From a virus, in the IMG/VR virus record IMGVR_UViG_3300045988_166584: a DNA stretch of 61,427 nucleotides; one strand, given 5' to 3'. The position numbers were made by a program, and so were the translations under genes. A model generated the notes under the pieces. That model was not told the DNA's origin, made no database searches, and saw only the letters and a list, made by a program, of their open reading frames with translations. This document shows positions 1 to 61,427 of the stretch, piece after piece; the first letter of the stretch is position 1, and each line of letters begins with the position of its first letter.

Positions 1-79
1 AAGTTCCCCCGGAACTTAGGCTAATAACAGGAGATATTATGGTAAAAATGCATAAACTGACCAAGGGTGGACAAACCAT
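1..79 (+). repeat. Left arm of a 79-bp perfect inverted repeat (IR-L)
   Basis: Exact reverse complement of 5923-6001. It contains the palindrome AAGTTCC-CCC-GGAACTT (1-17), an AGGAG RBS and codons 1-14 of fibre A. Confidence 0.95.
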
Positions 80-119
80 TTATCCAGCTACCATTTATGA
101 CGCAGTGGTCAACCCCAAG
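1..119. repeat. Terminal direct overlap, identical to 61309-61427; circular closure of a 61,308-bp unit
   Basis: Read directly. The first 119 nt (aagttcccccggaactt...gtcaaccccaag) recur verbatim as the last 119 nt of the window. Confidence 0.95.
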
Positions 120-2147
120 ACACGAAAGAGTCTGACTACGGAAATTTCCGAATTAGAAAGTTCCTTAAACGGCGGCGATACCGGATATATCAATCTCAAT
201 ATCCATTCATGGGTAACAGGCCAGTGGACGGGAGAAGGATCATCATTGACTCATAATGATAACTCTTCTTATAAACGTAATACCGAGGTGAGTACTTTGA
301 TTAAAAGTGGTGCTATTTTAACAATGTATGAAGCTTCCGGAAAACAAGTGAAAATGAATGATTATGGCATAACATTCAAATTCAGGGGTTCCGCAAAAAA
401 CAAGGCGGAATGGAGCTGGTATGATTCCGGTAATGGTATTCTGATTGGAAATACTGATGCCGTTGAGATTTATATGACAGTTGAAACATCCAATGTGGAG
501 TTTTTGAACGGGTTTGTGATTAAGGGGGCTTACGTGAAAGGAGCCGAGGATAAAATCAGTGAACTGACAGAAAGTGTGGAGTCTTTGGAACAGTCAACAA
601 CCGACAATATAGAACACATTTTTAATATTGACGAATCGGTTAACGGTGGTAATGTTGGACGCATATATATTAATGAGGATGATCTGGTTACCGGACGCTG
701 GACAGGTGAGGGTAAGAATCTGAAAGCAGATTCAATGGAAGGATATTTGCGCACTAAAAATTTGTATGACATAACTTTGAAAGCCGGTGACTTGATTTCT
801 GTATATGACAAGGCTGGAAAACAAGTAAAAGCCAACAGTCTCGGACTGAATATGAAGTTCAAAAACTCAACTAATACATCATCCATCATCTCCTATCAGG
901 ACAGCGGTACTTATTACAAACTCACTGAGGATGCGATGCAAATGGCATTTTTTGGCACTTCGGAGGCAGTTGAGAAGATTACCGGTTACTATTTCAAGGG
1001 ATTTCGGATTAAAGGATTTGACGAAAAAATCAGTGATGTCAATGAGTCTATCCATAAGCATATTAATGATGTAAAAATCACTGATTTTTATCATTCTCTT
1101 AAGATACTTTTCATTGGTTCTTCCTTTGGGGTTGACACGATTAATTACGTTGGAGATATAGCGCATAGTTATAATTTTAATATTGTTATCGGCAACCTTT
1201 ATGTTGGCGCTTCTGGAATTAAGGATTATATAACATTTTACGAATCCGACCGCAAAATATCCTACTATAAGTGGAATTTGAATGCCATTGCCTGGGAGAA
1301 TGGCACCAGTACGGTAAAAGAAGCCTTGTCCGATGAAGCGTGGGATTTTGTGGTAATCCAGAACGGAGCATATCAATCCGCAGATGAGTCAACCTATTGG
1401 GATCAGGACGAGAAAGGGAATATTACCAAGAACTATGTGAATCTGTTTGCTGACATCATTGATAGATGTTGCCTGTTCTCGCATCCTGTAATCTGTTTCA
1501 ACATGACATGGGCGTACAGCGTATATCATACGCTTTCATCATCGCAAGGTTCGAAGGACAAGTGGCTGAGTTTCGGCATTAATCAAAAACAGAGGCAGCT
1601 GGGTATGTATACGGAATTGTGTCGCTTGGCTCAAAAGGTATTGCAACATTGCCCGGAAGTAAAATTCGTCATCCCTTCCGGAACAGCCGTACAAAATGCC
1701 AGAGGCACGTCTTTAAGGACCGACACGACCATACAGGGAGTTGTGTCTCAATCCAATCCGGAAACGGGCACTACTGTAACAACCGTGGTCCCAACCATAG
1801 AAGAGGCTGAATCAATGACTGACTTGAATCAGGCTGCGGTAGATTTTCCATTTATGGCCGGTAAGGATAATAATTTTATGAACTGGCATTATGGTACAGA
1901 TTTGAGCAGGGACTGTCTGCACATGACAGAAGGGATCGGAAGATATCTTGTAGGAGGAGCCTTATGGCAGATGATTGGTTATAAACTTAGTCGCTTAAAC
2001 TTTACAGGGAATACATACCGGACGACTAAGGAAGACAAAACGAATTACAGAATCATAGCGGTTACTGACAGAAGAGCTGATATCGCTCAAAAATGTGTGA
2101 TTGCCGCATTGGATAACCCGTATGGGGTTTCAGACATTATGGAATAA
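39..2147 (+). CDS. Tail fibre / receptor-binding protein A with a C-terminal SGNH-type (DUF4886-like) esterase domain
   Basis: 702-aa ORF. The first ~40 aa are almost identical to ORF 3336-5963. It has two internal tandem ~150-aa repeats (NGGDTGYINL... and NGGNVGRIYI...). The C-terminal half has SGNH-like blocks: ILFIGSSFGVDT and RDCLHMT (D-x-x-H). Confidence 0.7.
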   Translation: MVKMHKLTKGGQTIYPATIYDAVVNPKTRKSLTTEISELESSLNGGDTGYINLNIHSWVTGQWTGEGSSLTHNDNSSYKRNTEVSTLIKSGAILTMYEASGKQVKMNDYGITFKFRGSAKNKAEWSWYDSGNGILIGNTDAVEIYMTVETSNVEFLNGFVIKGAYVKGAEDKISELTESVESLEQSTTDNIEHIFNIDESVNGGNVGRIYINEDDLVTGRWTGEGKNLKADSMEGYLRTKNLYDITLKAGDLISVYDKAGKQVKANSLGLNMKFKNSTNTSSIISYQDSGTYYKLTEDAMQMAFFGTSEAVEKITGYYFKGFRIKGFDEKISDVNESIHKHINDVKITDFYHSLKILFIGSSFGVDTINYVGDIAHSYNFNIVIGNLYVGASGIKDYITFYESDRKISYYKWNLNAIAWENGTSTVKEALSDEAWDFVVIQNGAYQSADESTYWDQDEKGNITKNYVNLFADIIDRCCLFSHPVICFNMTWAYSVYHTLSSSQGSKDKWLSFGINQKQRQLGMYTELCRLAQKVLQHCPEVKFVIPSGTAVQNARGTSLRTDTTIQGVVSQSNPETGTTVTTVVPTIEEAESMTDLNQAAVDFPFMAGKDNNFMNWHYGTDLSRDCLHMTEGIGRYLVGGALWQMIGYKLSRLNFTGNTYRTTKEDKTNYRIIAVTDRRADIAQKCVIAALDNPYGVSDIME

Positions 2148-2368
2148 TATACTTATGATACGAGAATTAATCACCAAAATAATGAACCATCTGTCCGTAG
2201 AAGTGCATCCGGATGCAGAATGGTTCTAGAATGTTAAAGGGTGCACTCTTCAAGAGAGTCATCCTTTAAATAGTCATTGCTTTTTAAAAGCATTTATGCC
2301 AATAGATATAATTTTATGATCATATTTCATTATTTATTATATGCTTTATTAATTTTCAAATAAAGATG

Positions 2369-2376
2369 TACTTTTG
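2369..2376 (+). promoter_or_regulatory. Bacteroides-type -7 promoter box TACTTTTG for the DUF2971 gene
   Basis: Exact match to TAnnTTTG, 64 nt upstream of the ATG at 2440. Confidence 0.5.
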
Positions 2377-2439
2377 TATCTCAAAACTTCTTTTAGAAAA
2401 GAGGGTAAATATAGTTATAAATTAATATATAATGATAAT

Positions 2440-3234
2440 ATGAAATCAGATCAACAACATACAGACCGAAGCCGAACAAAGAATTCCGTTCTTTACAAGT
2501 ATCTTGATATTGAAGGAGCAAAAATGATGCTTTCAAATAGAACTCTCCAGTTTACTAATGCGATGCAATTCAACGATCCTTTCGACTGTGATCCCAATTT
2601 AATAGACTTCTCTAAAGTACCTTATGAAAGGTGTAAAACATGGACATCGGATATTATTGAATCGCTTGCATTTGACCAATATAGAAAGAATCGGGAGGAC
2701 GTTTGGGTATGCTGCTTGTCAAAAGTCTTTAATTCGTTATTGATGTGGGCTTATTATAATAATCATAGAGGAGTTTGTATCGGCTTGAATATGGAGAAAG
2801 TGGCTAAATATTTCGATGCATCACTTGGACAGATAGTTGATAAACATGCTCATGAAGTCCAATATCGTGATATTATTGAAAAACCGGATTACTTCCAAAA
2901 CGAAGAAGATTTCTTTCATTATCAAATGTGCACAAAAGCTAAAGTCTGGGAACATGAACAAGAAGCACGTATGTTTATTTTCAATCCTTTTCCATGGATT
3001 ATGTTACCTGACCCAAATAATAAAAGTGATCTAGTAGACTGGAAAGAGGTAAGAGCTTTTCCTAGAATTGGAGGAGAATGTTTTGAATCCATATATTTTG
3101 GGGTAAACATTAACGAAAAAGAAAGTGGATTAATCAAGATTGCTAAAAAACTAAATCCTGATATAAAAGTGTATCAAATGGAAAAAAACACGAATGCCTT
3201 TAAATTAGATGCAATCCATATAAATGATGAATAA
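2440..3234 (+). CDS. DUF2971-family protein (paralogue 1 of 3)
   Basis: N-terminal signature VLYKYLDIEGAKMMLSNRTLQFTNAMQFNDPFDCD. The ORF-track start (2374, TTG) overlaps the promoter box, so the first in-frame ATG at 2440 is preferred. Confidence 0.65.
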   Translation: MKSDQQHTDRSRTKNSVLYKYLDIEGAKMMLSNRTLQFTNAMQFNDPFDCDPNLIDFSKVPYERCKTWTSDIIESLAFDQYRKNREDVWVCCLSKVFNSLLMWAYYNNHRGVCIGLNMEKVAKYFDASLGQIVDKHAHEVQYRDIIEKPDYFQNEEDFFHYQMCTKAKVWEHEQEARMFIFNPFPWIMLPDPNNKSDLVDWKEVRAFPRIGGECFESIYFGVNINEKESGLIKIAKKLNPDIKVYQMEKNTNAFKLDAIHINDE

Positions 3235-3274
3235 TAAGTATAGTCTTCCACTTTTTGTCGTTTAAGTTGTTACC

Positions 3275-3308
3275 AACGGACTAACAGGATTTAATCTGCT
3301 AGTCCGTT
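3275..3308. terminator. Bidirectional hairpin terminator between convergent genes
   Basis: Perfect 9-bp stem aacggacta / tagtccgtt with a 16-nt loop, lying between stop 3234 (+) and stop 3336 (-). Confidence 0.5.
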
Positions 3309-3335
3309 CTTACAGCTTTCCGAGTTACTCTATTG

Positions 3336-5963
3336 TTATGGTAGATAATAATCCCCGGTTTCTATTCTTTCTCCCTCCACATAACCAAGTTCAAGCAAAG
3401 TATTCCACATTTTAGCAGCCCAAATATAGGATAATAAATTATTCTGATGAATTTTATCACTGCCGGGCCAAAAGAGTGTTTCATAATCCGATGCTGTATA
3501 TTGACCTTCTATAATACCCAACGCTTGTCCATCATAAACTGCTTGTCCTTGAGTATAAGCGCGAAGATTGATATATCTTGCACCAAAACATTTATTAGCT
3601 TGATAGACTAGCTGATTAGTTGTAAGGGACAAGGGCGTAGAACAGACAATATACTTCTCAGAAAAATTATTAGCCGATGAACTGACCATATTAGCCCAAT
3701 CTTCTTCTGACTCGTATCCATAATTCTGACCTGTAAACCATATATGAGGATAATCCTTGTCATCATACAATGCAGCGTCAAAAAACACATTGCCTACACC
3801 TATTTTTGTTTCTCTTCCTTCTTCCAACCTTGTAAATTCATACAATAAAGAGGTGGCTAAGCTGTCAAAATAAATTTTTCCTTGTTTTATAGGCAGCAGC
3901 TCACTGCACTTGAATAATTCAGAGTAATGATATTGTCCCTTACTATCTATATAGCCATCTCTTGTTGCATTAGTTTTAATGTCCACCGTATCTTCGTTTA
4001 TTGTAATATGTGGTTCTCCAACATTTGGATTATTTATTGTGAATGTATATTTTGTCGCAGTAGATGGAATTGAATGGGTGCCAGTCTCGGATAGACTTTT
4101 TATAAATGTGCCATTCTCTGTATAAAATGCTATACCAACAGCGTCAATGGCTTGCTTTGCCAAATTTCCTCTTATACCATTAATAACTACCTGTACGTTT
4201 TGCCCATCTGATATAGCAACATAAGGTGTGTCGTGATAAATTCCGTCACTTTTTATCCATGCGCTTTCTAAAGCACAAATAACAGGGCCTTTGGCTGGTA
4301 TAGTAAACTCACCTTTAACCCTTATACCTATACCTCCTGCCCTTGTTAAATTGCCAATAGTTTTTTCGCCACCTTGGCATCTTTGAATTAATTCATATCC
4401 TGTAAATTTAAATATATTATTAAGTTGTTTTATTATCAATGCACTATTATTACCACACAGTGAATCTCCTACTATAACAACTCTTTTAGGCTTAGGCTTT
4501 TCAGAAGAAATTCCTGCTTTATAAACAATGATACTTGGTTCTCCAACAGCAATAAATTCATTATCTGAAGTAGATTTTGTCTGTAATATAAGTTCTAATT
4601 TTGTATATTGAGAATAATCTGATGTGTTGATAGTTACTGGTCCTGTTCCGTTTGTTAATTCATAAATTACATTATCATCTCCATACAGTATAAAAGCTGA
4701 CAACCTATTTGTATTATTAGACAGACTACCATTATTAGATAGTCCTTTAATAGTAACTGTATCATAATTAGATATATCTAATTTATCTGTGCTCCATAAT
4801 TTTTGTATTGAATTATAACCTTGAGTTGTTCCGTTCGGTTGATTTGCCCCCGTAAGCCATCTTCTTTTATTCCAAGTAAAAGAATTAAATATATCTATAT
4901 TATCTGCTCCAGAAATTAAATAATTAATTTTTTCTATTTCTGTGGTATTAAATTCAACAGAATCAGATAAATTATTAAAATCTTCTCTTGAAGCTACAGA
5001 ACTATCCATTATGACTATAATACTTGAATCATTTTTTGGAATAAATTCATCATCTGAAGTTGATTCACATTGTAAAATTAATTCCAGCTTGGTATATTGG
5101 GAATAGTCTGATGTATTAATAATAGTTTCACCACTTGCATCTCTAATTCCTTTAACAAGGGTATTATCACCATAAATACATATACCATTTAATGCAGATG
5201 CACTTGTGCTTATGGATGAGCCATCTAATAATCCATCGCAAATAATACTATCATATTCTGAAATGTCAATCCTTGCATACCAAATTTTTTGAACAGCATT
5301 ATATCCCAACTCCCCGCCATTAGGTTGATTTGTTCCTGTTACCCATCTTTTTTTATTCCAAGTAAGGACACCTATGACATCTTTCTCCAACCCTTCTATT
5401 TTATTTATAGAAGATTGAATAGATATAAGTTCTTCAGGCTTAACTACTTTAGCTTTGCTGTTGGCAATAACAGAAGGAATTATAGAATTATCTTGTTTTG
5501 CTTGAATAATGATGTTAATATTGCTTCTGTCGGAATATTTATCCATATTAATAACCGCAGAACTACCCCTCAAATATTCTATTTGTTCGCTACCACTATA
5601 AATACTAATTGAAGGGAAAATATCAGAAACGTCTACTTTTTCTGATAGTCCTGACATTTTTAGAGTATCGTAATATCCTACATCTGTCAATTTGGTATGC
5701 TTATAATTTTGTTTTTGAATACTATTACCCGCAGACGAATTTGTTTCCCAATCCCATGTGCCATCTATCCATACTGTATTTTCTGTTATAAGATCTTTAT
5801 CTATAGAGCCTTCTATTTGTGTCTTTAAATAAATTTCCTCATTTTCTAACTCTGAAAGTTCCGTAGTCAGACTTTTTCGTGTATTGGGGTTGACCACCGC
5901 ATCATAGATGGTAGCCGGGAATATGGTTTGTCCACCCTTGGTCAGTTTATGCATTTTTACCAT
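3336..5963 (-). CDS. Tail fibre / receptor-binding protein B with a GDSL/SGNH esterase domain
   Basis: 875-aa ORF sharing the N-terminus MVKMHKLTKGGQTI. It has two tandem ~160-aa repeats (WNKKRWVTGTNQPNG... and WNKRRWLTGANQPNG...), the GDS block VVIVGDSLCGN and a C-terminal GSDKIHQ (D-x-x-H). Confidence 0.7.
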   Translation of the reverse strand: MVKMHKLTKGGQTIFPATIYDAVVNPNTRKSLTTELSELENEEIYLKTQIEGSIDKDLITENTVWIDGTWDWETNSSAGNSIQKQNYKHTKLTDVGYYDTLKMSGLSEKVDVSDIFPSISIYSGSEQIEYLRGSSAVINMDKYSDRSNINIIIQAKQDNSIIPSVIANSKAKVVKPEELISIQSSINKIEGLEKDVIGVLTWNKKRWVTGTNQPNGGELGYNAVQKIWYARIDISEYDSIICDGLLDGSSISTSASALNGICIYGDNTLVKGIRDASGETIINTSDYSQYTKLELILQCESTSDDEFIPKNDSSIIVIMDSSVASREDFNNLSDSVEFNTTEIEKINYLISGADNIDIFNSFTWNKRRWLTGANQPNGTTQGYNSIQKLWSTDKLDISNYDTVTIKGLSNNGSLSNNTNRLSAFILYGDDNVIYELTNGTGPVTINTSDYSQYTKLELILQTKSTSDNEFIAVGEPSIIVYKAGISSEKPKPKRVVIVGDSLCGNNSALIIKQLNNIFKFTGYELIQRCQGGEKTIGNLTRAGGIGIRVKGEFTIPAKGPVICALESAWIKSDGIYHDTPYVAISDGQNVQVVINGIRGNLAKQAIDAVGIAFYTENGTFIKSLSETGTHSIPSTATKYTFTINNPNVGEPHITINEDTVDIKTNATRDGYIDSKGQYHYSELFKCSELLPIKQGKIYFDSLATSLLYEFTRLEEGRETKIGVGNVFFDAALYDDKDYPHIWFTGQNYGYESEEDWANMVSSSANNFSEKYIVCSTPLSLTTNQLVYQANKCFGARYINLRAYTQGQAVYDGQALGIIEGQYTASDYETLFWPGSDKIHQNNLLSYIWAAKMWNTLLELGYVEGERIETGDYYLP

Positions 5964-6001
5964 AATATCTCCTGTTATTAGCCTAAGTTCCGGGGGAACT
6001 T
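5923..6001 (-). repeat. Right arm of the 79-bp perfect inverted repeat (IR-R)
   Basis: Exact reverse complement of 1-79. It contains the same palindrome (5985-6001), the RBS and codons 1-14 of fibre B. Confidence 0.95.
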
Positions 6002-6046
6002 AAGCTATCATTATTTTATGTAACTATTTATTTAACTATTAAATCA

Positions 6047-6502
6047 TTATTTCTCTTCCGGTGGCAGAGGAGGTACAAAATCACTCAGTACATCATCATA
6101 CTCCCTCTCTGACAGAGGGACGCTCTGCACCGCATTGTATGCGGCATAATCCGGATAGGAAATGATCTCCGCCGTGCTCTCATCCGTCTTTCCGGCAACG
6201 AGGATAACACCTGTATTCTCCACCGATACAAGATTGCAGATGCCATCGGCAAAATCAGCATCGGAAAGATAGTATTCGCGTTTGACCGACAGAGCACCGG
6301 GACGTAGTCCATGCCTGTCAAAAATGACCAACAGACCACCATCATCAAGCCTGTGGCAGTTCTTGTACCCGTGCCCGTCAAACTCCGCAACGACACACCC
6401 CGACAGGACTGTGCGGTAAGTAAACCGGAAGGGAGTATTTATATCTCCATTCAGGCTCTTCTCTATGATTTTAAAATCGGACTGATAATTAATTCTTATC
6501 AT
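6047..6502 (-). CDS. Hypothetical virion/tail-associated protein
   Basis: 151-aa ORF in line with the virion operon, directly upstream of fibre B. No recognisable motif. Confidence 0.5.
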   Translation of the reverse strand: MIRINYQSDFKIIEKSLNGDINTPFRFTYRTVLSGCVVAEFDGHGYKNCHRLDDGGLLVIFDRHGLRPGALSVKREYYLSDADFADGICNLVSVENTGVILVAGKTDESTAEIISYPDYAAYNAVQSVPLSEREYDDVLSDFVPPLPPEEK

Positions 6503-6507
6503 AACTC

Positions 6508-6846
6508 TTATAATATTGATGTTACATCGTCTATCTCCTCGGCTGTCAGGTATCCGTTCAAGTCAACACTTCCGCCACCTCCTGTCATGCCTGTAGGACT
6601 CCATTTCCCCTTTATCTTGCATTCATATATAGGGCCCGGTATGGTATCCCCCACAATAGCCCAGTCACCCACAACAGGAGATGGAACAGCCTCTTCCAGC
6701 AATTTAAGAGTAGAAAATAATCCCTTGTTGCGGATACCGTTCTGCTTGACCTTTTCTAGTTCGGTAGAAGTCTTACTAAAGTTGTTGTTAAGACGGTCTG
6801 CCGCCTCACTCCAAGTACCTGTCTTATTGATCGAATTCAGTTCCAT
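6508..6846 (-). CDS. Hypothetical virion/tail-associated protein
   Basis: 112-aa ORF tightly packed between 6848-9157 and 6047-6502. Confidence 0.5.
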   Translation of the reverse strand: MELNSINKTGTWSEAADRLNNNFSKTSTELEKVKQNGIRNKGLFSTLKLLEEAVPSPVVGDWAIVGDTIPGPIYECKIKGKWSPTGMTGGGGSVDLNGYLTAEEIDDVTSIL

Positions 6847-6847
6847 A

Positions 6848-9157
6848 TCACTTCTTTACTTTTAAAGTCCCGTTTGTCACGACTCCTTCTACTGTCTCAT
6901 ATTCCACATATACCTGACCTGACGAAACATCATCTTTCCCCGGCCAATTACTGCAATCAATATTGGCCACATGCTTATACACATTCACCCCGTTGTATAT
7001 CGGTTTCATCCCGACCAGCAGCATTTCGCCGTTGGAACCATAAAAGGATACGTTATTGGGATTAAGAATGATATCCGTATTTTCTACATAATTCTGTATT
7101 CTGATACGTTCCGGATATACAGTCGTTTCTAGTATCAATTGGTCCCCTGCATATTTCCGCAAAATCAAATCACCATATTCCCATCCGTCCGATGATGTGT
7201 CGAACCTTAATATCAAGGTGGCATGTCCTTCAGTCGTGTACATTTCAAGAGTATTTTTATCCGGATCAATGACAATGCGTTTCCCGTCAACAGATGTTTC
7301 TACTTTTCCGCGGAAAAATCCGCCCAAGGCTTCAACCACACCGCGGAACTTACCACCCAAGGCATAAATATAGCCACGCAGGAACGTATCGCCACCATGA
7401 GTGGCAACGAAGTTCGCCATATTCGCCCATTCTTCATCGGTGGGTTGATAATTCGGATCATTACGAAACCTCATCACGGTCAATATAGCCTGTTGTAACG
7501 TGCCACCTGCCCAAAATGCCACATCATCATCGTCATTGTATATGCCGCTAACTCCGGCTGTGACCTTCTGCATCTTGCCATCCTTGTAGTTGCCTAACTG
7601 GATCATATTGGCCAATATCAAACCGCCAAGGATGTCCACAGAACCATCCTTAATCGCGCTGGCGATATAATTGATTGACTGAAAACCGGCCATGGACTTG
7701 TCGTTATCAAGAATTGAAGGCTTCCAATCGGTGGCGATGGTCCCACGCTCTAGCTGAAGATCACAAACGGTTGCGGTACCACTGATAAGAAATATACCAC
7801 TGCCATTGAAGGTGATCTTATGGGTATATCTCTGATAAGAGGATGTGAGAGGTTGAGAAACACTGAAAGAACCGCACGAAACAGACACAGACGTACCCTT
7901 TGCTTTATAACTGATAACATAACTTTCTCCTTTAATCAATGATACGGACTGGGACAAACTACCGATTGCAGCAGAGTACCCGGAGCCGGCATCACTGTCC
8001 GCAGATACGGTAGCCACTCCCGTCCAATATTCCAGTTGCTTGCTAAAAAGTTCGGTATCCGCCGATAGCTCGGTAGCGGCAGACAGGTCCTCTGTCTCAT
8101 AATCTCCCGTAAACCCGGAATTACGCAACAGATTGACACTTCCGACAGCCGCATTGTCTATCGCATCCTTGGCCTCTTGGGCAAGATCAGCCGCCGCCTG
8201 TATCTCATCCGGCAGACCTTCCATATTACGCCATCCGGTGGAACCCTGCTCGATATGGAACATACCCTTGATATCAACACCGCCTTTTTGTGTATAACGG
8301 ATGTAAGTGCTCTCATCCTTGGCACCGATATAGGCATCACCATACACATTGATATAGGCGTGTCCGGTGGACTTGTCAAAGCCCAGCCCGATGACTTCTT
8401 TCCCGGCAAGGGCGAAAGAATTGATGCCTTGGTAAAAAATAATGGAAGGCGAAGTTTCATTAACAGAAGAAAGGATTATAGCTGCCTGACGAGTGATGTC
8501 CGTCAAGTGTCCCAAGCCAATAATATCATCACCGGCAACCGGGATATCACTGTCCTTGTCGGCATTGGTTTTGCTCAAGTCAATATAGTCAGATCCTACA
8601 CCTGTCACCTCACGCCAGTAGTAGCGGTTGGATACATTGTGAGATGTTCCTTCTTTAATGTTAAATTCTTGGGCTAATGCTAATGTACCGACTGTAAATT
8701 CGTTATTGATTGTAATACCATCGACTTCCGATAAGAAGAAACAGCGGTAGCTCTCATCAAGTTCCTCCACACGGACACACTTCATTCCGGCTGGAGATAA
8801 GATCTGCTCACCACCAACATGCGTCTTCTTTTTCACTTCAAGTTCATCAAAGACAGCCTTAATCTTCACATAAAGCCGGTCAACAACGGCTTGAGAGGTA
8901 CCATCTTCCAGTACAGTAATTCCACTACCGTTCTTACCAATCAAAAGACCTTTCAAAAAAGTGATCAGCTCATTAGCGATATCTTCTTTATCTTTACGAA
9001 GGAAGTATTTGGTGAGCTTTTCTAAATCGGAATTATCCATGTTTTCTAGAATCCCGATAAATATGCGCCCAATTCTTTCAGCTGTATTCTCTCCTTCTGC
9101 AGATGCGTTTCTTACTTGAAGAGCCAGTTTCTTTAATATGTCAACCGAATCGCTCAT
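6848..9157 (-). CDS. Large tail / host-specificity protein with a carbohydrate-binding-like module
   Basis: 769-aa ORF. The segment NLLRNSGFTGDYE...LQLERGTIATDWKPS resembles the jelly-roll sugar-binding modules common in phage fibre proteins. Position is consistent with a distal tail role. Confidence 0.5.
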   Translation of the reverse strand: MSDSVDILKKLALQVRNASAEGENTAERIGRIFIGILENMDNSDLEKLTKYFLRKDKEDIANELITFLKGLLIGKNGSGITVLEDGTSQAVVDRLYVKIKAVFDELEVKKKTHVGGEQILSPAGMKCVRVEELDESYRCFFLSEVDGITINNEFTVGTLALAQEFNIKEGTSHNVSNRYYWREVTGVGSDYIDLSKTNADKDSDIPVAGDDIIGLGHLTDITRQAAIILSSVNETSPSIIFYQGINSFALAGKEVIGLGFDKSTGHAYINVYGDAYIGAKDESTYIRYTQKGGVDIKGMFHIEQGSTGWRNMEGLPDEIQAAADLAQEAKDAIDNAAVGSVNLLRNSGFTGDYETEDLSAATELSADTELFSKQLEYWTGVATVSADSDAGSGYSAAIGSLSQSVSLIKGESYVISYKAKGTSVSVSCGSFSVSQPLTSSYQRYTHKITFNGSGIFLISGTATVCDLQLERGTIATDWKPSILDNDKSMAGFQSINYIASAIKDGSVDILGGLILANMIQLGNYKDGKMQKVTAGVSGIYNDDDDVAFWAGGTLQQAILTVMRFRNDPNYQPTDEEWANMANFVATHGGDTFLRGYIYALGGKFRGVVEALGGFFRGKVETSVDGKRIVIDPDKNTLEMYTTEGHATLILRFDTSSDGWEYGDLILRKYAGDQLILETTVYPERIRIQNYVENTDIILNPNNVSFYGSNGEMLLVGMKPIYNGVNVYKHVANIDCSNWPGKDDVSSGQVYVEYETVEGVVTNGTLKVKK

Positions 9158-9663
9158 TCTCCTATTACACGAAAAACAGTTCTATTAGATTTTAATTTCC
9201 CTCCACCGTTATAAAGTGGCATGTTACATTCTTTGAGGTAGAGTACGCACTCTTTTAAATAACGATCTGCAATGTTGCATGCATCATTATATACCATCAT
9301 CTTCTCCTTGAATTCCGTATGATTGCTATACTCACCTTCCTTGTTTACGAAGCCAAAACGGGATACATTCCCATCTCCATTTTTGACAATACAGGCATAG
9401 GTATAGTATGCCAATGCTATACGGAGCCCGGTGAAAAGTTTCTTTTCCTTGCATTTGGTTTCGTAAGTACCACCGTCAAGTAATAATGCGTATTTATCCG
9501 GATTCGTTTTTACATCAAGGAACAGTTCGTCTCCTAACGCTGATTTGATGTAGATATTCTCCGACTCACGGATATAGGTTTCTATCTTGTCAGGATCGAG
9601 ATGTACAGACATTCCGCGAGATAAAGCTGACACTTCATCTGTTGTTATTAGATATTGCTGCAT
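9154..9663 (-). CDS. Hypothetical structural protein
   Basis: 169-aa ORF with overlapping start and stop codons with its neighbours, suggesting translational coupling. Confidence 0.5.
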   Translation of the reverse strand: MQQYLITTDEVSALSRGMSVHLDPDKIETYIRESENIYIKSALGDELFLDVKTNPDKYALLLDGGTYETKCKEKKLFTGLRIALAYYTYACIVKNGDGNVSRFGFVNKEGEYSNHTEFKEKMMVYNDACNIADRYLKECVLYLKECNMPLYNGGGKLKSNRTVFRVIGE

Positions 9664-10822
9664 TTCTTATATACTTTAATGGTTCGACACTGAAATCTCC
9701 TGAAGGATTGGCTACTTCGTGCCAATAGCTGAACACACGACTTAGCGTGCGTTCTATAAGACGTTGTTGTTTGCTGACGATAGAGTTATAGTATTCGAAG
9801 GCATCTTCCAAAATATCGCCTGAGAATCCGACTTTACCAATACGGATGCAATACCATGGCTCTTGGCCATAAGCTGAATAAATACGTTCAACCACACTTG
9901 CGTCAGTAACGGTAAATTCTTTGTCGTAATTTTGTGAGTTCAGATTTATTATTTCAGGTTTTTCCTCATCGCTTTCTAAAGTAACTTCCATAATCTTTCC
10001 TGCATTCGTATCACCTTGCAACTGGATGAGTGTATTTGAGAAACTGTCGTCATCGTCTGTATCTTTCACTTCGTTGCCTTCTTCGTCAAAGGTTATGTTC
10101 GATCCCTTTTTGGTGAATACCATAGCGCCAGGGAAGAAATTATTTCGTACATTTCTGTACTTGACATTGGACAGCCCTTCATCGGTACTCATTTCTGTAG
10201 CCACCCGGTCACCTTTCCCGACAGGATAAGTATTTTTTCCGGCCATTGACACCCATAGGATTTGACCTTTGTAGTATTCAATGCCTCCGGCAGCTTCTAT
10301 TTGAGCTAGTATCACATCTTTTTTGGGGTTAAAAACGTCTATGTAGTCGATGTTTTCTTTCTTGACCTGCAGAGCTTTCCCTTTACGTGTCTTCTTTCCG
10401 CTCCAGTCTGGATGTACTGCTATTTTTGCCACATAACCGTTTTCATCTTCTTCCGTCAGACGGCAATTTTCAAACGGTACGTGCTGCATCTCCACTATCT
10501 CACAGAAAACATTGTAGTTAACATGGATTGCTATTCCATTGAGTTCGGACATGTCTTTACATAGTAACATGTGTACATCATCCAATGTGTCACCTTTTCG
10601 ATTGACCACATATTTGGAAAACGCAACCTCACGGAATCCGTTTCCTTCGATAAAGTCAGCGAAACGGTCTGAGCATTCAGATGCAGTAGAGCTTGCAGCA
10701 ATGATATTCTTTAATGTCTGTGGATATAGGTTGTCCTGTCCGTAGGCTTGAATTCCTAGATTTTGTAAATAGCTGGTATCAATGCGGTTACTGCTTTTCT
10801 TTTTTAGATCTCTTACTCTCAT
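9635..10822 (-). CDS. Putative portal protein
   Basis: 395-aa ORF with an acidic tract. The QGDTNAGKIMEV segment resembles the NAGK motif of HK97-type portals (from memory). It is the only portal-like candidate in the genome. Confidence 0.5.
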   Translation of the reverse strand: MRVRDLKKKSSNRIDTSYLQNLGIQAYGQDNLYPQTLKNIIAASSTASECSDRFADFIEGNGFREVAFSKYVVNRKGDTLDDVHMLLCKDMSELNGIAIHVNYNVFCEIVEMQHVPFENCRLTEEDENGYVAKIAVHPDWSGKKTRKGKALQVKKENIDYIDVFNPKKDVILAQIEAAGGIEYYKGQILWVSMAGKNTYPVGKGDRVATEMSTDEGLSNVKYRNVRNNFFPGAMVFTKKGSNITFDEEGNEVKDTDDDDSFSNTLIQLQGDTNAGKIMEVTLESDEEKPEIINLNSQNYDKEFTVTDASVVERIYSAYGQEPWYCIRIGKVGFSGDILEDAFEYYNSIVSKQQRLIERTLSRVFSYWHEVANPSGDFSVEPLKYIRNAAISNNNR

Positions 10823-10855
10823 GTTCGTGAGGTTTACGTCCGTCCTTTATATCTT

Positions 10856-11440
10856 TTAGTCAACTTTACCTTCGCCTTTTCCATTCATTGCGTTCATAAT
10901 CTCAATGGCCTTGCTTAGATGCAGATTCAGAGCTTTTTTACTGATCTTCTTGCCATTGATTTGGAAATCTTTCAACGTGTCAGCCACGGATTCTTCAGAA
11001 ACTCCGTCTTGCAATGATTCTACCATTGAATCAAGCAGGTTTTGATTGTATCCACATTTGTTAACACGTTCTTTCCAGTCCGTAGGTACATGGGCGAAAT
11101 AAATTTCACCTTTCGGATTTTTGGCAAGGTACTTTTCAGCAACTTCATCAGTGAGGTTGTCATTAGTGTACATTTTATTGCTTCCGAACTCCGGTTGAAG
11201 CAGGACACCATTTTTTAATCTATAATTACATTTTTCTTTCATACGGTTATTCTTTTTGATGTAAACAGTCATTTCGATTACAGCATCGCGATAGCAGTCG
11301 TTACATGATGTCTTGGTGAATTCTTTTCCTAACACTTCCTTGTACAATCTTTCTATCTCCGATTTATCAGAAGAGGAGTAGGAGGGAAGACCTCCTAGCT
11401 CCTTTAATTTATCAACCACTTCTTCTAACTCCATAATCAT
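10856..11440 (-). CDS. Hypothetical protein in the head module
   Basis: 194-aa ORF in the virion operon with no recognisable motif. Confidence 0.45.
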   Translation of the reverse strand: MIMELEEVVDKLKELGGLPSYSSSDKSEIERLYKEVLGKEFTKTSCNDCYRDAVIEMTVYIKKNNRMKEKCNYRLKNGVLLQPEFGSNKMYTNDNLTDEVAEKYLAKNPKGEIYFAHVPTDWKERVNKCGYNQNLLDSMVESLQDGVSEESVADTLKDFQINGKKISKKALNLHLSKAIEIMNAMNGKGEGKVD

Positions 11441-12045
11441 TCAGTTGATTTTGTCAGTGTTTCAACAAGCGTTTTTGTCGCATCGTAAGATGTTTTGTAC
11501 AAGAATAATGCTGATTTGGGAACCTTGGTTTCTTGCAAAGAGATATTCCATCCCCCTTCCGTTTCTTCGGAATACTTGTCATTGCCGATCTCTGCGGCTT
11601 TCAAACCTTGGTAGTAACCGTAAACCTGAAAAGCTGAATCTCCCGGATTCTCGCTTTTATTTAACCCTTTAGCTTTATTCTCCAATACAACGACAAAATC
11701 ACCGTTAGCAAGCCCATCAATAATGTCATTGCATACATCGGGGTCATTTGCTAATACAACCATGTTCACTGTGTTAGTGAACGTGTTACGATAGGTTCCT
11801 GTTGCCAAGGCTGTATTGGTACCTGTAAAAGGGGTTGCACCGAATACCTGTACCTTGTAACCTTTTTTACCTGTTTTCAGTGCAAGAGTTTCGATCACAT
11901 TCTTACGGGTTGCGTTGAATGTAACCGCACCGAAATCCACGTCTGCGCGATTCATTATCACACCTTCCTGTTCCAATCCGGGAACGATAGGATCATCGCA
12001 TGATGGTGCGATGTCCTTCTTGATTGTTATATCACATATTGCCAT
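11437..12045 (-). CDS. Putative virion structural protein
   Basis: 202-aa ORF immediately downstream of the capsid gene. It is Gly/Thr/Asn-rich and looks beta-rich. Confidence 0.45.
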   Translation of the reverse strand: MAICDITIKKDIAPSCDDPIVPGLEQEGVIMNRADVDFGAVTFNATRKNVIETLALKTGKKGYKVQVFGATPFTGTNTALATGTYRNTFTNTVNMVVLANDPDVCNDIIDGLANGDFVVVLENKAKGLNKSENPGDSAFQVYGYYQGLKAAEIGNDKYSEETEGGWNISLQETKVPKSALFLYKTSYDATKTLVETLTKSTE

Positions 12046-12060
12046 ATTTGCTCTTTTTCG

Positions 12061-13128
12061 TTAGTATGCTACCTGTACCAACTCATCTTCGCCAATCATG
12101 GAACCTAATTTTCCTGTTGAATAAATGTAGTTCTTGCGGGCTTTCTTATCAAACCAGATATCCAAGTCCGACATCGGTTCGGTGCCCTCACATCCATACA
12201 TCAAGTTCTCAGGAGAACATAAAACAGCACGATGCGGTAAGTTAAGTTTGGTTTTGTTGTTCTGATAGGCTTGAATAAATCTATCCCAAATGGAACATTT
12301 AACGATGGTTGTTCCATCGTATTTGCTGACCTCTACACCGTCAAATACAACTTCCCAGGGCATGATTACCTTGTACTTTTCTTTCATATCGTGAGTCAGA
12401 GCATCGCACATTGACTTGGTGGCGAAAATTGCGCATCCGTCTTTTTGGAAAATCCGGCTGTCGGCATCTTGCAACATCGCATCGAATATTGATGTGGCAA
12501 TGCCTGTTTCTTTCATCTTTGATTTTTGTAATGCATATGATTCTTCTGCGTTGGCTGCAATTTCAGTGTGCTGTCCGGTATTGTTGGTACAGATGGCAAA
12601 CAGACGTTTGAAAAAACCGTCACATGTTTTAAATAGTTCGATGTTTACTCCGTCAGTGATTTGACCACCTCCAGTGACAGACGCTGCTGATTTATCTCCA
12701 AACCATGTAAAACGCCACATCATTTTCATCATAGCTTCAGACAGCTTCGGCAGTACAATACCGTCCATATATTCGGTCGATGTCAGGTCTCCTATATTTG
12801 TTCCCGTTTTAAGGCAGTACTTGGCAATGGTGTTTTCCAAGTCTGTATAGCACATTTCCAAAGGAATTTGCCAATCCCCGATTTCCCATTCCTTTTGGGC
12901 GGCAGCGATAGCCACTTTTTTATATTCAGGGTCGCATCCGGAGCCGGCTACTCCGATATCTTCCATTTCACCGATAAAACCTGCTTTTTTACCGTTAGTC
13001 ACATTGGGCATAAACGTCATAAAACGCTCCATGTCCTCGTTTTGAAAGACTGTTAACTGAATAAGGTCTTTCAAGTCTTTTACAGCCTGATTATCAGGTG
13101 TAAGTTTGTCAAAATCTAAAATAGGCAT
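12061..13128 (-). CDS. Putative major capsid protein
   Basis: 355-aa ORF directly after the prohead protease/scaffold gene. The call rests on size and synteny. Confidence 0.55.
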   Translation of the reverse strand: MPILDFDKLTPDNQAVKDLKDLIQLTVFQNEDMERFMTFMPNVTNGKKAGFIGEMEDIGVAGSGCDPEYKKVAIAAAQKEWEIGDWQIPLEMCYTDLENTIAKYCLKTGTNIGDLTSTEYMDGIVLPKLSEAMMKMMWRFTWFGDKSAASVTGGGQITDGVNIELFKTCDGFFKRLFAICTNNTGQHTEIAANAEESYALQKSKMKETGIATSIFDAMLQDADSRIFQKDGCAIFATKSMCDALTHDMKEKYKVIMPWEVVFDGVEVSKYDGTTIVKCSIWDRFIQAYQNNKTKLNLPHRAVLCSPENLMYGCEGTEPMSDLDIWFDKKARKNYIYSTGKLGSMIGEDELVQVAY

Positions 13129-13142
13129 TTCCCCTCCTTTTA

Positions 13143-28309: not shown

Positions 28310-28534
28310 ATGGAAGCAAAAGGAGTAATACATTTGGAAATAAAGGCGACTGGGCTACACAGATACTTCGGTTCGCCATCGGCTATGTATGATAACTATA
28401 CAAGTCAAGAACTCGGAATTGCCCGACAGTCACTTCTGAACTACTGGCAAAAGACGGAGGAACCTTATGAAAATGCTGTTTGCATAATCAGGAAGGGAGA
28501 ATTAGAACGTAAAAAAAAGACAAAAATAGAATAA
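28310..28534 (+). CDS. Small HTH-like protein (NUMOD1-like pattern)
   Basis: 74 aa with the segment YFGSPSAMYDNYTSQELGIARQSLLNYWQK. Its stop overlaps the start of the next gene (TAATG). Confidence 0.5.
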   Translation: MEAKGVIHLEIKATGLHRYFGSPSAMYDNYTSQELGIARQSLLNYWQKTEEPYENAVCIIRKGELERKKKTKIE

Positions 28535-42812: not shown

Positions 42813-43630
42813 TATTCCAGTCCGAAAATCTTCTTGTCCGTGATAGATTCTCTATTAGCTTCCAAAAACTCTATGAAATGTTCTACGTGTGCCGTGAGCA
42901 GTTTCACTGTCTGTTCGTGATTGTAAGTATAATATTCCGGATATTGCGTACCACTGATAAGCGGTGTGCGGCTGGTACCGCCTTTCAGCGCATAAGCCGT
43001 AAACTCAAATGCCTTTATGTTTTCCATCTGACCGGAAGCAATTAGGCAATAAGGGTAGACATGGCGCTGCCACCCGTGGGCGTATTTGCCGAACTCGTAT
43101 TTAGATGTGGATTTTATGTCATAAACAACATCCTTTCGGAGTTCGTCGATAAATCCGTATAACTCCACATTTCCGTACTGGGTAGGAAGAATGGCGGATA
43201 CATAGACCTGACTTAATGAGCCTTTGAAATACTCTGCCTGTTCTATACACCATTGTCTGTCGAAAAGGAAATGCCGTGCAGGTGCGATATCCGTTGCGGG
43301 GAAAGCTACTTGTATAGTATTGGTTTCCTTATCGCCAATGATGGAGTAGGGGGAACGCTCTGTCGGCACGTGATTTTCGCAATGGACATAGCAGTCAATG
43401 ATAGCATTGAAGGCTGTTCCCTTGTCGGCTGCTTCACTCTCAAACGGTACACGGTTGATAGCATCCAGAAGGTCTTGTTTCAGGCTCTCTTCGATTTCTT
43501 CCGGAGAGCGTTTATACTCTCCGGTTTCATTATCAATGTTCCAGAAGTTTTCCACTTCTTCATCAGCTCTCAGATACTTGTCGAATTTGTCAAGTAATGA
43601 GGGATAGATTCTATAACTAGGCTGCTTCAT
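42812..43630 (-). CDS. PD-(D/E)XK (RecB/Cas4-like) exonuclease
   Basis: 272 aa with GFIDEL...VVYDIKST (D...D-x-K), next to an AAA_24-type ATPase. Confidence 0.6.
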   Translation of the reverse strand: MKQPSYRIYPSLLDKFDKYLRADEEVENFWNIDNETGEYKRSPEEIEESLKQDLLDAINRVPFESEAADKGTAFNAIIDCYVHCENHVPTERSPYSIIGDKETNTIQVAFPATDIAPARHFLFDRQWCIEQAEYFKGSLSQVYVSAILPTQYGNVELYGFIDELRKDVVYDIKSTSKYEFGKYAHGWQRHVYPYCLIASGQMENIKAFEFTAYALKGGTSRTPLISGTQYPEYYTYNHEQTVKLLTAHVEHFIEFLEANRESITDKKIFGLE

Positions 43631-54705: not shown

Positions 54706-54786
54706 TTGGAGGATTTTGAATGGATAGATAACCTTCTGCTTGTCAGTATAGTAAGCGCAGATCAGAATTCATACTGGCAGTCTAAA

Positions 54787-54815
54787 GGTGGCGAGTTCGA
54801 GTCTCGCATGCTCCA
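54787..54815 (+). other. tRNA 3'-end fragment (T arm plus acceptor 3' strand); probable attP core
   Basis: GCGAG-TTCGAGT-CTCGC is followed by ATGCTCC-A. No matching 5' acceptor, D arm or anticodon arm lies upstream. It is located 134 nt upstream of the integrase gene. Confidence 0.6.
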
Positions 54816-54948: not shown

Positions 54949-56124
54949 ATGACAACTCTTAAAGCCGCCGTTGTTCCGGCCAAGGTGCTGAAAAACGGCA
55001 AACACAGAATTCGTATCGCAATTGGTCATAAACAGGAAACAAGATACATCGTTACCCGATTTGAAATAGATAATACTGCTAATTTTAAAGGAGGGCAGGT
55101 GGTAGGTGTTCCTGATGCCGCACATGTCAATGCTAAATTACGTGGAATACTTAATTCATATCAGGATGCCTTGGATAAGATAAACACATCATCCTATACT
55201 TGTACCCAACTTGTCGAATACTTGTCCTCGGTAAAGCAGGGAGCCATCTCTTATAGTGTCGCTTCGGCTGACTATATGCAGAATTTGATTAAAGAGGGGA
55301 GAAGGACCACTGCCTCCTTATATCAAAGGGCGAGTGATTACTTCATTGAGTTTGTCAAATATGATATAATGCTTGATGGAATTACTCCCCGGACCATAAA
55401 GGACTTTGATATTTATCTAAAGAATGTCCGAAGGCTGGCTCCTGTTACTTGTGGTATGCACATGGCACATTTGAAGGCAATAATCAATCAAGCAATAAGG
55501 GATAAGAAGGTATCATATGACACGCATCCTTTTGAATATTATGAAAGACCAGCAGGAATGCCCAAAGAGCGTGATATCTCGGTAGCTGACGTAAAGAAGA
55601 TAAGGGATGCGGAGATAAAAGAGAAGTCTCAGCGTGTTGCCAGGGATGTGTTCATGCTTTCGTATTATCTAGGAGGTATCAATCTGATGGACTTGATGCA
55701 ATACAATTTCAAAGATGCGAAAATTATGGAATATGTACGTGAAAAATCCAAAAACACAAAGAAAGGTGATATGAAGATTAGCTTCACTATTCCTGAGGAA
55801 GCAAAACCGATTATCAAAAGATGGATGGGACGTAATGGAAAGCTTGATTTTGGTTATAAATATTCTTATCCTAATTTTCGTAACTATGTAACAAAAGAAA
55901 TTATAAGGTTAGGGGAGAGGCTGGAGGTAGAATCGCATGTCGTATATTATTCAGCCCGGAAATCCTTTGTCCAACATGGTTTTGAACTGGGTATACCATT
56001 GGAAACTTTGGAATATTGTATAGGCCAAAGCATGAAATCCAATAGACCGATCTTTAATTATGTCAGAATTATGAGAAAACATGCTGATGAAGCCATAAGA
56101 AAGATTTTAGATAATCTAAAGTGA
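54949..56124 (+). CDS. int: Tyrosine site-specific integrase (Bacteroides type)
   Basis: 391 aa. The N-terminal arm-binding-like region is LKAAVVPAKVLKNGKHRIRIAIGHKQETRYI. The C-terminal catalytic region is YYSARKSFVQHGFELG...NYVRIM. Confidence 0.85.
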   Translation: MTTLKAAVVPAKVLKNGKHRIRIAIGHKQETRYIVTRFEIDNTANFKGGQVVGVPDAAHVNAKLRGILNSYQDALDKINTSSYTCTQLVEYLSSVKQGAISYSVASADYMQNLIKEGRRTTASLYQRASDYFIEFVKYDIMLDGITPRTIKDFDIYLKNVRRLAPVTCGMHMAHLKAIINQAIRDKKVSYDTHPFEYYERPAGMPKERDISVADVKKIRDAEIKEKSQRVARDVFMLSYYLGGINLMDLMQYNFKDAKIMEYVREKSKNTKKGDMKISFTIPEEAKPIIKRWMGRNGKLDFGYKYSYPNFRNYVTKEIIRLGERLEVESHVVYYSARKSFVQHGFELGIPLETLEYCIGQSMKSNRPIFNYVRIMRKHADEAIRKILDNLK

Positions 56125-60078: not shown

Positions 60079-60597
60079 TTAGCCAACATAAGAGATATCA
60101 TTTATACGGTTCATCCAGCCCCGTTTGAACTTGTTATTTGCAGGGCGCTTCCGGCATATATCCTCGATGAAATCAAACCGTGCAATCTTGATCTGATCAA
60201 ACAGTTCACGTGGATTACGGGAATTGACTGCGGCAAGTGTCTTAGACCCGACAATGCCATCAGGAATCACGCCAAGCAAATCCTGCGGTATTTTGATACC
60301 GTGCACTCCGCTTGCCCAGATCCAATCGACAAGGATATCAGCTATGGATTGGGATTTAATTTCGTCAGCTTTCCACCTGTCCCAATACATGGTTTTCAAA
60401 ATCTCCGTCCATTCCTCTTTCGTGATGTTTTTCAATCTTTCAACCGTAGGCTTGGGATAGCCTTTCTTTCGGCAATACGCTTCATAAGTTCCAATGGTCA
60501 CACCCATATTGGTAGCCCCTCCTAAATCGTCCGGGTCATTTACAAAACCGCCTTCCCACTTCAGGATAAACGGTGCAAGTTTTTTCACATCAGCCAT
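60079..60597 (-). CDS. Endolysin (GH108 lysozyme-like plus PG_binding_3)
   Basis: [24 protein letters not shown] is the GH108 signature. The C-terminal half is a peptidoglycan-binding-like region. Confidence 0.8.
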
Positions 60598-60982
60598 TTT
60601 TCTTTTCCTCCTTATCTTTAATTAATGTAGTCCTGCGTGGTGGAATACGACGACCGCATTCGCTGTCAGGCCTGTCACAACGGTTATGCTCGGCATCTTT
60701 CAATTGCAGTTCCAGCTCGTGGCACTTATGAATCCATGCCAGCTTATCAGACTGTTCATTACGAAGCTCAACGTATAACGCATCAATCTTGGCGTCACGC
60801 TGGGCGATGCGTTCTTCCAGCCAGTCAACCTGCTTACGCTCGTTCTCATCCTCCATCGAATCGGCGGACGCATCCTCTTTCCGTGCGTTAGTCTTGCGGT
60901 TCACCCAGAACGTGACACCCCAGCGGACAGCCTCCAATCCTCCGAAAGCCCCGATTATAGCCAACCAGTCGTTTAATTCCAT
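60590..60982 (-). CDS. Membrane-anchored coiled-coil lysis protein (holin or i-spanin-like)
   Basis: 130 aa with an N-terminal TM segment ([22 protein letters not shown]), a coiled coil and a basic tail. It overlaps the endolysin start. Confidence 0.5.
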
Positions 60983-61148: not shown

Positions 61149-61156
61149 CAAAGATA
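61149..61156 (-). promoter_or_regulatory. Second upstream -7 box TATCTTTG
   Basis: Exact TAnnTTTG on the minus strand, in tandem with 61022-61029. Confidence 0.4.
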
Positions 61157-61308
61157 AAAACTCACATTCCTGTTTCAAACTTTTTCACCTAAAAATATAG
61201 TAGAAATAGATACATGGTAGAAAGTGGGTAGAATCCTAAGAAAAATATCTTTTGTTCTACCCTATTTTTTGAACAGAACTTATCTGATTCATTTTCAATG
61301 CTGTTTCC

Positions 61309-61427
61309 AAGTTCCCCCGGAACTTAGGCTAATAACAGGAGATATTATGGTAAAAATGCATAAACTGACCAAGGGTGGACAAACCATTTATCCAGCTACC
61401 ATTTATGACGCAGTGGTCAACCCCAAG
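61309..61427. repeat. Second copy of the terminal overlap (same as 1-119)
   Basis: Verbatim repeat of 1-119. It restarts the fibre A gene (ATG at 61347) and is cut off by the window end. Confidence 0.95.

Follow-up and report, generated by a model that had tools for sequence, protein, structure and literature searches.

Invertible segments that offer alternative tail fibres are best known from the G segment of phage Mu (inverted by Gin), the C segment of P1 (Cin), and the e14 (Pin) and p15B (Min) systems. In these systems a serine invertase is encoded beside the segment and acts, together with Fis and an enhancer, on 26-bp sites (12-2-12) whose crossover spans 2 bp. The crossover falls within the fibre gene, and the constant N-terminal part of that gene lies outside the segment. 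Here, a 61,427-nucleotide stretch of viral DNA (IMG/VR record IMGVR_UViG_3300045988_166584; hereafter the window) is described, in which two tail-fibre genes, A and B, occupy a 6-kb segment bounded by inverted copies of a 21-nucleotide (nt) core. The segment is very probably an actively inverting, site-specific switch. Inverted sites, alternative fibres and, by prediction here, a fixed promoter outside the segment and a silent copy in reverse orientation are common to this locus and the Mu, P1, e14 and p15B systems. In contrast to them, the dyad of the present switch, centred on 3 nt, is located upstream of the ribosome-binding site (RBS), and whole genes are exchanged together with their start codons. 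The original prediction, made from the letters of the window, had likened the segment to Mu G and P1 C. That likeness holds for function, but with no serine invertase, another site geometry and a whole-gene swap the locus stands outside that family.

Closer in some respects are inversions described in temperate phages of gut bacteria. In the Rin shufflon of Bifidobacterium prophages, the rin gene lies beside the cassettes, the rix sites are 11 bp long, and several C-terminal cassettes are fused to a constant N-terminal gene (PMC6109161). A second bifidophage inversion has no flanking recombinase; about 500 bp of the 3′ end are swapped at an 8-bp site in two genomes, and an invertase acting in trans was proposed (PMC6109161). 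Rin resembles the present switch in that the receptor-binding protein (RBP) of a temperate gut phage varies, which is attributed to an invertase of the tyrosine family, while the recombinase-less bifidophage locus is the nearest precedent for the lack of a recombinase in cis. In comparison with both bifidophage loci, the type found in the window involves two full genes of 2-2.6 kb and a 21-nt core, and about 160 loci of it are listed. In a BV01-like phage of Phocaeicola vulgatus, a 1.7-kb shufflon carries three small C-terminal cassettes separated by the 10-bp motif TGGGAGAACT (PMC13596623, preprint, September 2026). A recombinase gene flanks it, six isoforms of one gene result, and a role in countering phase-variable capsules was proposed (PMC13596623). 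The host family is the same and inversions likewise diversify a carbohydrate-binding tail fibre; the BV01-like phage has no nucleotide similarity to the window and is a different phage. On the bacterial side, Tsr0667 of Bacteroides fragilis (BT2267 in B. thetaiotaomicron) is a master invertase acting in trans on many dispersed sites at SusC/SusD loci. Sites of this type are short imperfect dyads at chromosomal outer-membrane-protein loci that start with AGTTC.. and end with ..ACT. The phage core, in contrast, is an extended and perfect dyad with no further occurrence in representative genomes, and its link to the enzyme is putative. Finally, two hypothetical genes in a putative prophage of B. 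fragilis NCTC 9343 are flipped as 'invertible region Q', which was reported in 2005 and again in 2010 but left uninterpreted (mentioned in PMC3090145) and may be an element of the same kind. A literature search found no description of the present switch. New here are the swap of whole genes from a point upstream of the RBS and the absence of an invertase gene in cis.

Bases 1-79 of the window are the exact reverse complement of 5923-6001. The ungapped inverted match reaches 1-159 versus 5843-6001 at 92%, which fits the dozen or so mismatches that had been counted by eye in the following 85 nt or so. Both copies contain the 17-nt palindrome AAGTTCCCCCGGAACTT, an AGGAG RBS and the first 13-14 codons of a large open reading frame (ORF), with ATG codons at 39 (+) and 5963 (-). 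The palindrome, RBS and first codons, and likewise the three ORFs of the segment, were all found as the original prediction had given them (Table 1). With up to 3 mismatches allowed, no further copy of the palindrome is present in the window (0.13 expected by chance). The core, of 7-3-7 geometry (up to 11-3-11), precedes the ATG by 22 nt, leaving the RBS, start codon and N-terminus inside the segment. On the operon side the dyad often grows to about 11-3-11 (GCCT/AGCTT AAGTTCC NNN GGAACTT AGGC). The first base of the contig is the first base of the repeat and also the point at which the outer flanks, ..TTTCC and ..AGCTT, cease to differ. Each element has two sites and two complete fibre genes, not three or more sites with partial C-terminal cassettes.

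Core-bearing stretches (designated by L numbers) were fetched from viral contigs, representative genomes and metagenomes, and the sequence outside and inside each site was classified. All locus counts refer to the matches listed and are lower bounds; there are at least 150 loci (human-gut metagenomes), and the core is also present in the cultured Bacteroides phage BS-TP3 and in genome records of Phocaeicola dorei and P. vulgatus. Both orientations of the A/B segment were encountered. Fibre B adjoins the operon flank and fibre A the lysis flank in the window and L003, and the arrangement is reversed in L001, L005/L014, L011, L024 and L150. Over the 158 fibre-associated sites listed, operon-side and lysis-side occurrences were 10/10 for the cassette termed 0, 10/8 for fibre B and 4/4 for fibre A. 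Each cassette is seen both behind and facing the tail operon, that is, inversion places alternative fibres behind a fixed outside operon. Searching for an identical protein instead of the DNA pattern led independently to the same result. An identical 875-amino-acid (aa) protein (P0001) was found in 24 contigs. It lies behind the tail operon in L154, L156, L157 and L158, and in 11 and 1 further similar places, and against the lysis genes in L153, L155 and 6 further similar places, with the 805-aa partner in the opposite place. In L153 and L154, which come from different samples, a segment of 5,671 bp is 100.000% identical but oppositely oriented, and the flanks are identical save for mismatches between the two repeat leaders; the pair L013 and L021 behaves alike. 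Since no point mutations have gathered since the flips, inversion must be frequent and ongoing, and not an ancient fixed rearrangement. As with invertons in general, conserved short inverted sites bound a segment that is seen both ways in otherwise identical genomes. The proposal that an invertible segment puts one of two fibres behind the virion operon is thus borne out by the two orientations found in nature and by their identical junction haplotypes.

A de Bruijn unitig begins at a branching k-mer, and contig starts at the point of flank convergence are therefore expected where junctions are mixed. The contigs L090, L100, L162 and L163 begin at TCC|AAGTTCC, the convergence point of their lineage, and contig L028 consists of the segment alone. 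These contig starts, that of the window included, and L028 are indirect evidence that both orientations may coexist within single samples. Ordinary contig ends in the repeat were rejected as proof of heterogeneity, as repeats longer than k break assemblies regardless; only contigs starting exactly at flank convergence were counted.

The position of the exchange was located by comparing leaders and flanks. Across all copies the only invariant block is AAGTTCC-NNN-GGAACTT-AGGC. Directly after nt 21 the leaders diverge by cassette (TAATAACAGGAG.., GGATGAAAGGAG.., TAAAAACAGGAG.., TAATAATAAGATAC..), and the variants from nt 22 onward accompany the fibre body, whichever flank it adjoins. At both flanks the dominant leader haplotypes (140 nt) are equally frequent (6/6, 7/7 and 3/3), and the outer flanks remain different as far as nt 1. 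Thus the exchange is confined to the 21-nt core, which supports the earlier reading of the palindrome as the recombinase core. Other cassette pairs that flip have perfect stretches of 21-28 nt, with 21 nt in B/cassette-0 pairs. Inversion therefore appears to be site-specific recombination and not general recombination over 79-159 bp of homology. The 79-bp identity is incidental and peculiar to the A/B pair. Of the two roles originally offered for the 79 bp, homogenised tract or crossover site, the second applies to nt 1-21 and the identity beyond is not needed, as the pairs with 21-28 nt flip. L001 and L003 have a perfect stretch of 100 nt because fibre B there carries A-like nt 80-100, a trace of occasional gene conversion. 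Among the matches listed, only two classes of central triplet occur (CCC and GGC), and in 17 of 19 two-site loci the two ends agree in their triplet. L087 (4020, 10309) and L150 (1172, 7173), hybrids between lineages, combine a GGC core with a CCC core; should identical overlaps be required for strand exchange, they may be locked. The dyad has an asymmetric centre and can be read as 5-7-5 or 9-7-9. A lambda-type tyrosine-recombinase core is a dyad with an asymmetric 7-nt centre, while sites of serine invertases are 12-2-12. By this analogy the inversion core fits the geometry of a tyrosine recombinase and not that of a serine invertase.

Which enzyme acts at the core was approached through the gene content of the window and its relatives. 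Pfam, PHROGs and NCBIfam searches of 40 window ORFs, including all neighbours of the segment, detected no second recombinase beside a tyrosine integrase and no PF00239-type serine recombinase, in agreement with what had been read from the window initially. The integrase is 5.2 kb from the segment, and no dedicated tyrosine invertase gene flanks the cassettes. The gene between the fibres varies, being a DUF2971 gene, a gene for a 110-aa protein, one for a 288/335-aa protein, or none, and no gene of the segment is constant. The DUF2971 product was rejected as a recombinase; it matches the candidate defence gene PDC-S31 instead. Lineages with the same inversion core have integrases that BLASTP does not relate to that of the window (L134, L052/L007 and L111/L101 types), the L052/L007 type being 38% identical to the L134 type, and overall the core accompanies four unrelated or very divergent integrases. 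With unrelated integrases and a variable gene between the fibres, no invertase candidate is encoded in cis. Invertases acting in trans are well established in Bacteroidales (Mpi, Tsr19, Tsr0667), and such an enzyme of the host, a tyrosine invertase, is the simplest explanation here, its chance being put at about even. That it is specifically a Tsr0667-like enzyme is a more tentative suggestion. The repeat consensus controlled by Tsr0667 is reportedly AGTYYYN4GDACT. This pattern, AGTYYYNNNNGDACT, matches the window at the two cores only (0.56 matches expected by chance) and offers a lead. The repeat AGTTCTGCAAAGACTT.. of the BT2260-68 shufflon of B. thetaiotaomicron has been published as agreeing with the Tsr0667 motif; in this one repeat compared, the geometry is like that of the phage core, and 5/6 positions agree in the left arm and 3/6 in the right. 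The Tsr19-type motif TACTTNNNANGTAANNGAA was tried and does not fit the core.

Among the other explanations, the phage integrase could double as the invertase, with the cores serving as secondary sites. No other recombinase was detected in the phage, many relatives have the integrase gene within 2-5 kb of the lysis-side core, and the core has tyrosine-recombinase geometry, the attB core TTAGA-CTGGCAG-TCTAA being likewise 5-7-5. The properties of the integrase, however, point elsewhere. Homology to the window stops exactly at attP in L001, L038, L118, L136 and L140, and an intact tRNA-Ala gene lies at this point beside int in L001, L038 and L136, the three scanned. By these sequence junctions the gene is a genuine tRNA-Ala integrase, and the integrated copies indicate that the window represents the excised or circular form. 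It has no match to NCBIfam invertase families, its att core bears no convincing resemblance to the inversion core, and the invariant core occurs with the BLASTP-unrelated integrases listed above. The integrase was not favoured on these grounds, and a double role is improbable. Thus, of the enzymes first considered, the phage integrase is unlikely and a host enzyme of the Tsr type is the better candidate.

Slightly less credible is a recombinase or accessory protein of the phage that is conserved in the tail or lysis module and has escaped recognition. Many ORFs next to the segment are without annotation (151 aa, 112 aa, 130 aa and 174 aa), and nothing but the tail module and the core is conserved in every lineage. 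But these ORFs are small and placed among structural or lysis genes, none matched a catalytic family, and no constant gene lies inside the segment.

It was also considered that no dedicated enzyme operates, homologous recombination or gene conversion acting over the 79-159-bp repeats in a dual-fibre phage for which orientation is of little consequence. The repeat arms are long enough for RecA, leaders can be mosaic (as in fibre B of L001/L003, and some cassette-0 copies with a B-like leader), and single-site relatives keep the palindrome without a partner. Against this, the exchange in common haplotypes always falls inside the 21-nt core, even with only 21-28 nt perfect; the roughly 50:50 flank split per cassette and the flip-only differences at 100% identity imply a high switching rate; and the central triplets agree as described above. 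This explanation is judged poor. That the inversions are assembly artefacts of arbitrary orientation between inverted repeats hardly deserves weight: many contigs do end at or inside the repeat, and the SPAdes k of 55 is below the 79-nt perfect repeat of the A/B pair, but in B/cassette-0 pairs k-mers span the junction of 21 perfect nt uniquely and both orientations still recur, the 119-nt terminal overlap of the window exceeds its 79-nt perfect repeat, and 160 nt are readily bridged by paired reads.

Site-specific inversion, then, alternates two genes whose products look like RBPs. They are the last genes of the tail module and have a common N-terminus, and the assignment draws further on DUF4886, SGNH and carbohydrate-binding-like folds. 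Fibre A matches Pfam DUF4886 (7.9e-30) and PDB 4i8i (1e-14). A PDB sequence search with fibre B gave no match; its model (AlphaFold pLDDT 65, moderate) contains three carbohydrate-binding-like beta-sandwiches with long helices between them, recognised as domain-level fold matches, and its C-terminal domain, with GDSL and DxxH motifs, is SGNH-esterase-like. The two fibres are alike only over about 42 N-terminal residues. In databases this N-terminus is joined to more than 20 different bodies, and other cassettes carry SGNH or pectate-lyase-like domains. The DUF2971 gene inside the segment, present as noted at first sight, is optional cargo that other segments replace or lack; a flip might alter its expression. 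Two further DUF2971 genes are present in the window, at 28534-29508 (+), opposite in orientation to its neighbours, and at 52740-53510 (+). The matches to PDC-S31 are 3.3e-29 for the gene at 2374-3234 (+), 1.5e-37 for 28534-29508 and a marginal 2.3e-4 for 52740-53510, which is called DUF2971 through the annotation of the homologous gene of BS-TP3. The 110-aa gene always lies 3′ of the cassette-0 fibre (805/810 aa) on the same strand (L008, L012, L013, L153-L158), and by its position resembles a fibre-specific assembly chaperone such as Mu U/U′.

Expression was examined with the strict Bacteroides promoter pattern TTTG-N17-23-TAnnTTTG; a scan for sigma-70 promoters and terminators is uninformative for Bacteroides. 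The pattern has no match upstream of either fibre and none between the 151-aa gene and the fibre. The only match near the segment, close to the end of the window, points into the lysis genes, and by this consensus match the lysis cassette is independent of read-through. The flank beyond fibre A is no dead end; it holds the lysis cassette with a Bacteroides-type promoter of its own that points outward.

Together, these results suggest the following mechanism, which as a whole is considered rather probable. Conservative site-specific recombination between the two inverted 21-nt cores would flip the 6-kb segment. The catalyst would be a tyrosine invertase of the host acting in trans, for which the master invertases of the Tsr0667 family in Bacteroidales are the foremost candidates. 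Transcription of the late operon through the 151-aa gene and the core would drive whichever fibre adjoins. The fibre facing the operon, having no consensus promoter, would stay silent, and one fibre would be expressed at a time. A flip would bring the other fibre gene behind the late structural operon, where it would be made. Because the fibres bear different glycan-binding or esterase modules, the flip would change the host surface glycan recognised by the virion, and with it presumably the host range.

Several points weigh against this proposal. Small or novel phage recombinases may escape Pfam. The one Tsr0667-type repeat compared, AGTTCTGCAAAGACTT, agrees with the core at 5/6 in the left arm but at only 3/6 in the right. 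The exact core was found at no non-phage locus in 185,579 representative genomes; the scans matched one contig of a Phocaeicola metagenome-assembled genome, which is the phage segment itself, plus chance matches. Eight relatives keep a single core, and the palindrome may serve otherwise, for instance by forming a 13-bp hairpin in the mRNA. That the OFF fibre is silent is a prediction from the missing consensus promoter, and the change of host range is likewise predicted. The presence of both orientations in one population is deduced from contigs.

Single cores bear on the further roles that the palindrome may have. In seven relatives (L039, L042, L051, L060, L084, L096 and L101), one core lies upstream of a single fibre that is followed by further tail genes. 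The eighth, L100 (core at L100:4713), has a second, convergent fibre without a core. These are natural locked or never-invertible versions of the element and suggest an additional role of the palindrome; as it is retained where inversion is impossible, an RNA element or a docking site for cassette exchange is possible. The core may accordingly act also as an RNA element, or dock the exchange of cassettes between phages. As RNA, the core with its flank on the operon side (5985-6013, -) forms a 13-bp hairpin, UAGCUUAAGUUCC-CCC-GGAACUUAGGCUA, 13 nt upstream of the RBS. No T-run follows the hairpin, which speaks against an intrinsic terminator, and an influence on the stability or translation of the mRNA is conceivable. 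Cassette exchange at the core is hinted at by L150, L087 and L007, whose arrangements are hybrid. L007 (5433-11727) has lysis-type flanks on both sides and no tail operon; one flank is a 72% variant with an L052-type integrase, and the opposite one is of the window type. Either the shared core led to a chimera in assembly, or two phages recombined there. In the 280-kb bacterial contig SKEE01000006.1, a lysis-side core with an integrase is found at about 11 kb and an operon-side core some 90 kb away (stretches L052 at 2677-13440 and L143 at 100327-111151), a pattern of either two prophages or a large rearrangement between cores.

The features of the locus are collected in Table 1.

Table 1. Coordinates of the fibre switch and associated features in the window
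Feature	Position	Strand	Remarks
Left inverted-repeat arm	1..159	+	79 nt perfect, 159 nt at 92%; contains core, RBS leader and codons 1-41 of N-terminal anchor
Left recombination core, AAGTTCC-CCC-GGAACTT-AGGC	1..21	+	17-nt palindrome plus AGGC; sole block invariant in all copies
Fibre A, 702 aa	39..2147	+	Shared N-terminal anchor, DUF4886; OFF position here, facing against operon and adjoining lysis flank
Optional cargo gene, DUF2971	2374..3234	+	Co-oriented with fibre A; matches PADLOC candidate defence PDC-S31
Fibre B, 875 aa	3336..5963	-	Shared N-terminal anchor; ON position, in line with virion operon
Right inverted-repeat arm	5843..6001	-	Partner of 1..159
Right recombination core, same 21 nt inverted	5981..6001	-	Outer flank lengthens dyad to about 11-3-11 (AGCTT AAGTTCC CCC GGAACTT AGGCT)
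Last constant gene of structural/tail operon, 151 aa	6047..6502	-	Directly upstream of right core; conserved beside ON fibre
attP core	54773..54815	+	Identical to 3′ part of host tRNA-Ala(GGC), anticodon loop onward
Tyrosine integrase	54949..56124	+	Only recombinase detected in phage; not favoured as invertase
Lysis genes: 130-aa protein and holin-associated N-acetylmuramidase	60079..60982	-	Downstream of segment; BS-TP3 holin/endolysin; GH108
Bacteroides-type promoter match, TTTG-N19-TAtcTTTG	61149..61179	-	Points away from segment into lysis genes; consensus match only
Assembly overlap, circle closure	61309..61427	+	Exact duplicate of 1-119; no third repeat copy

Bases 1-119 recur at 61309-61427 with 100% identity. 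These 119 nt are an assembly overlap, and the window closes into a circle of 61,308 bp. As this overlap closes the circle, there are two copies of the repeat and not three, and the upstream flank of fibre A is 61179-61308. The phage is temperate and siphovirus-like, of Bacteroidaceae (human-gut Bacteroides/Phocaeicola). The terminase, protease, capsid and tail genes lie on the minus strand and end in the 151-aa gene, and the invertible segment separates this last tail gene from the lysis cassette. A cultured relative, BS-TP3 of B. salyersiae BG8, is 93-98% identical over much of the genome and arranged as the window: tail genes, fibre (+), DUF2971 (+), fibre (-), holin, endolysin, integrase. 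Inversion is not mentioned in the BS-TP3 paper. Close homologues of fibres B and A are annotated in genomes of P. dorei and P. vulgatus. Elsewhere in the window, at 56648-59342 (-), a Shosta-type defence module comprises ShosA (DprA-like; 57160-58149, 4e-60) and ShosT (PRTase; 58731-59342, 8.5e-20), with a HAD phosphatase beside them at 56648-57148. Bases 56633-59604 are missing from L001, L003, L024, L038 and BS-TP3, and relative to these the module is an insertion. A gene for an AAA_24 ATPase at 43617-45590 (-) is split by an intein-like insert with Hint and LAGLIDADG homing-endonuclease domains.

Gut Bacteroidales evade phages by phase-varying their capsules and outer-membrane proteins, and the response of temperate Bacteroides phages is largely unknown. 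Each phage of the present type, which is widespread in the human gut, has two complete RBPs that are swapped by one precise flip. If the invertase is that of the host, the phage would clearly be borrowing the phase-variation machinery of its host for use against host phase variation. A wider speculation, judged rather doubtful, is that a phage without an invertase has a core that mimics a host site of the Tsr0667 family, that one enzyme varies both the bacterial surface and the phage RBP, and that the core is a universal docking point for more than 20 cassettes among gut Bacteroidales phages. The system is tractable, with a 21-nt site, two junctions to be followed by polymerase chain reaction and the cultured relative BS-TP3, and its conserved site and many cassettes could aid the engineering of host range in Bacteroides phages.

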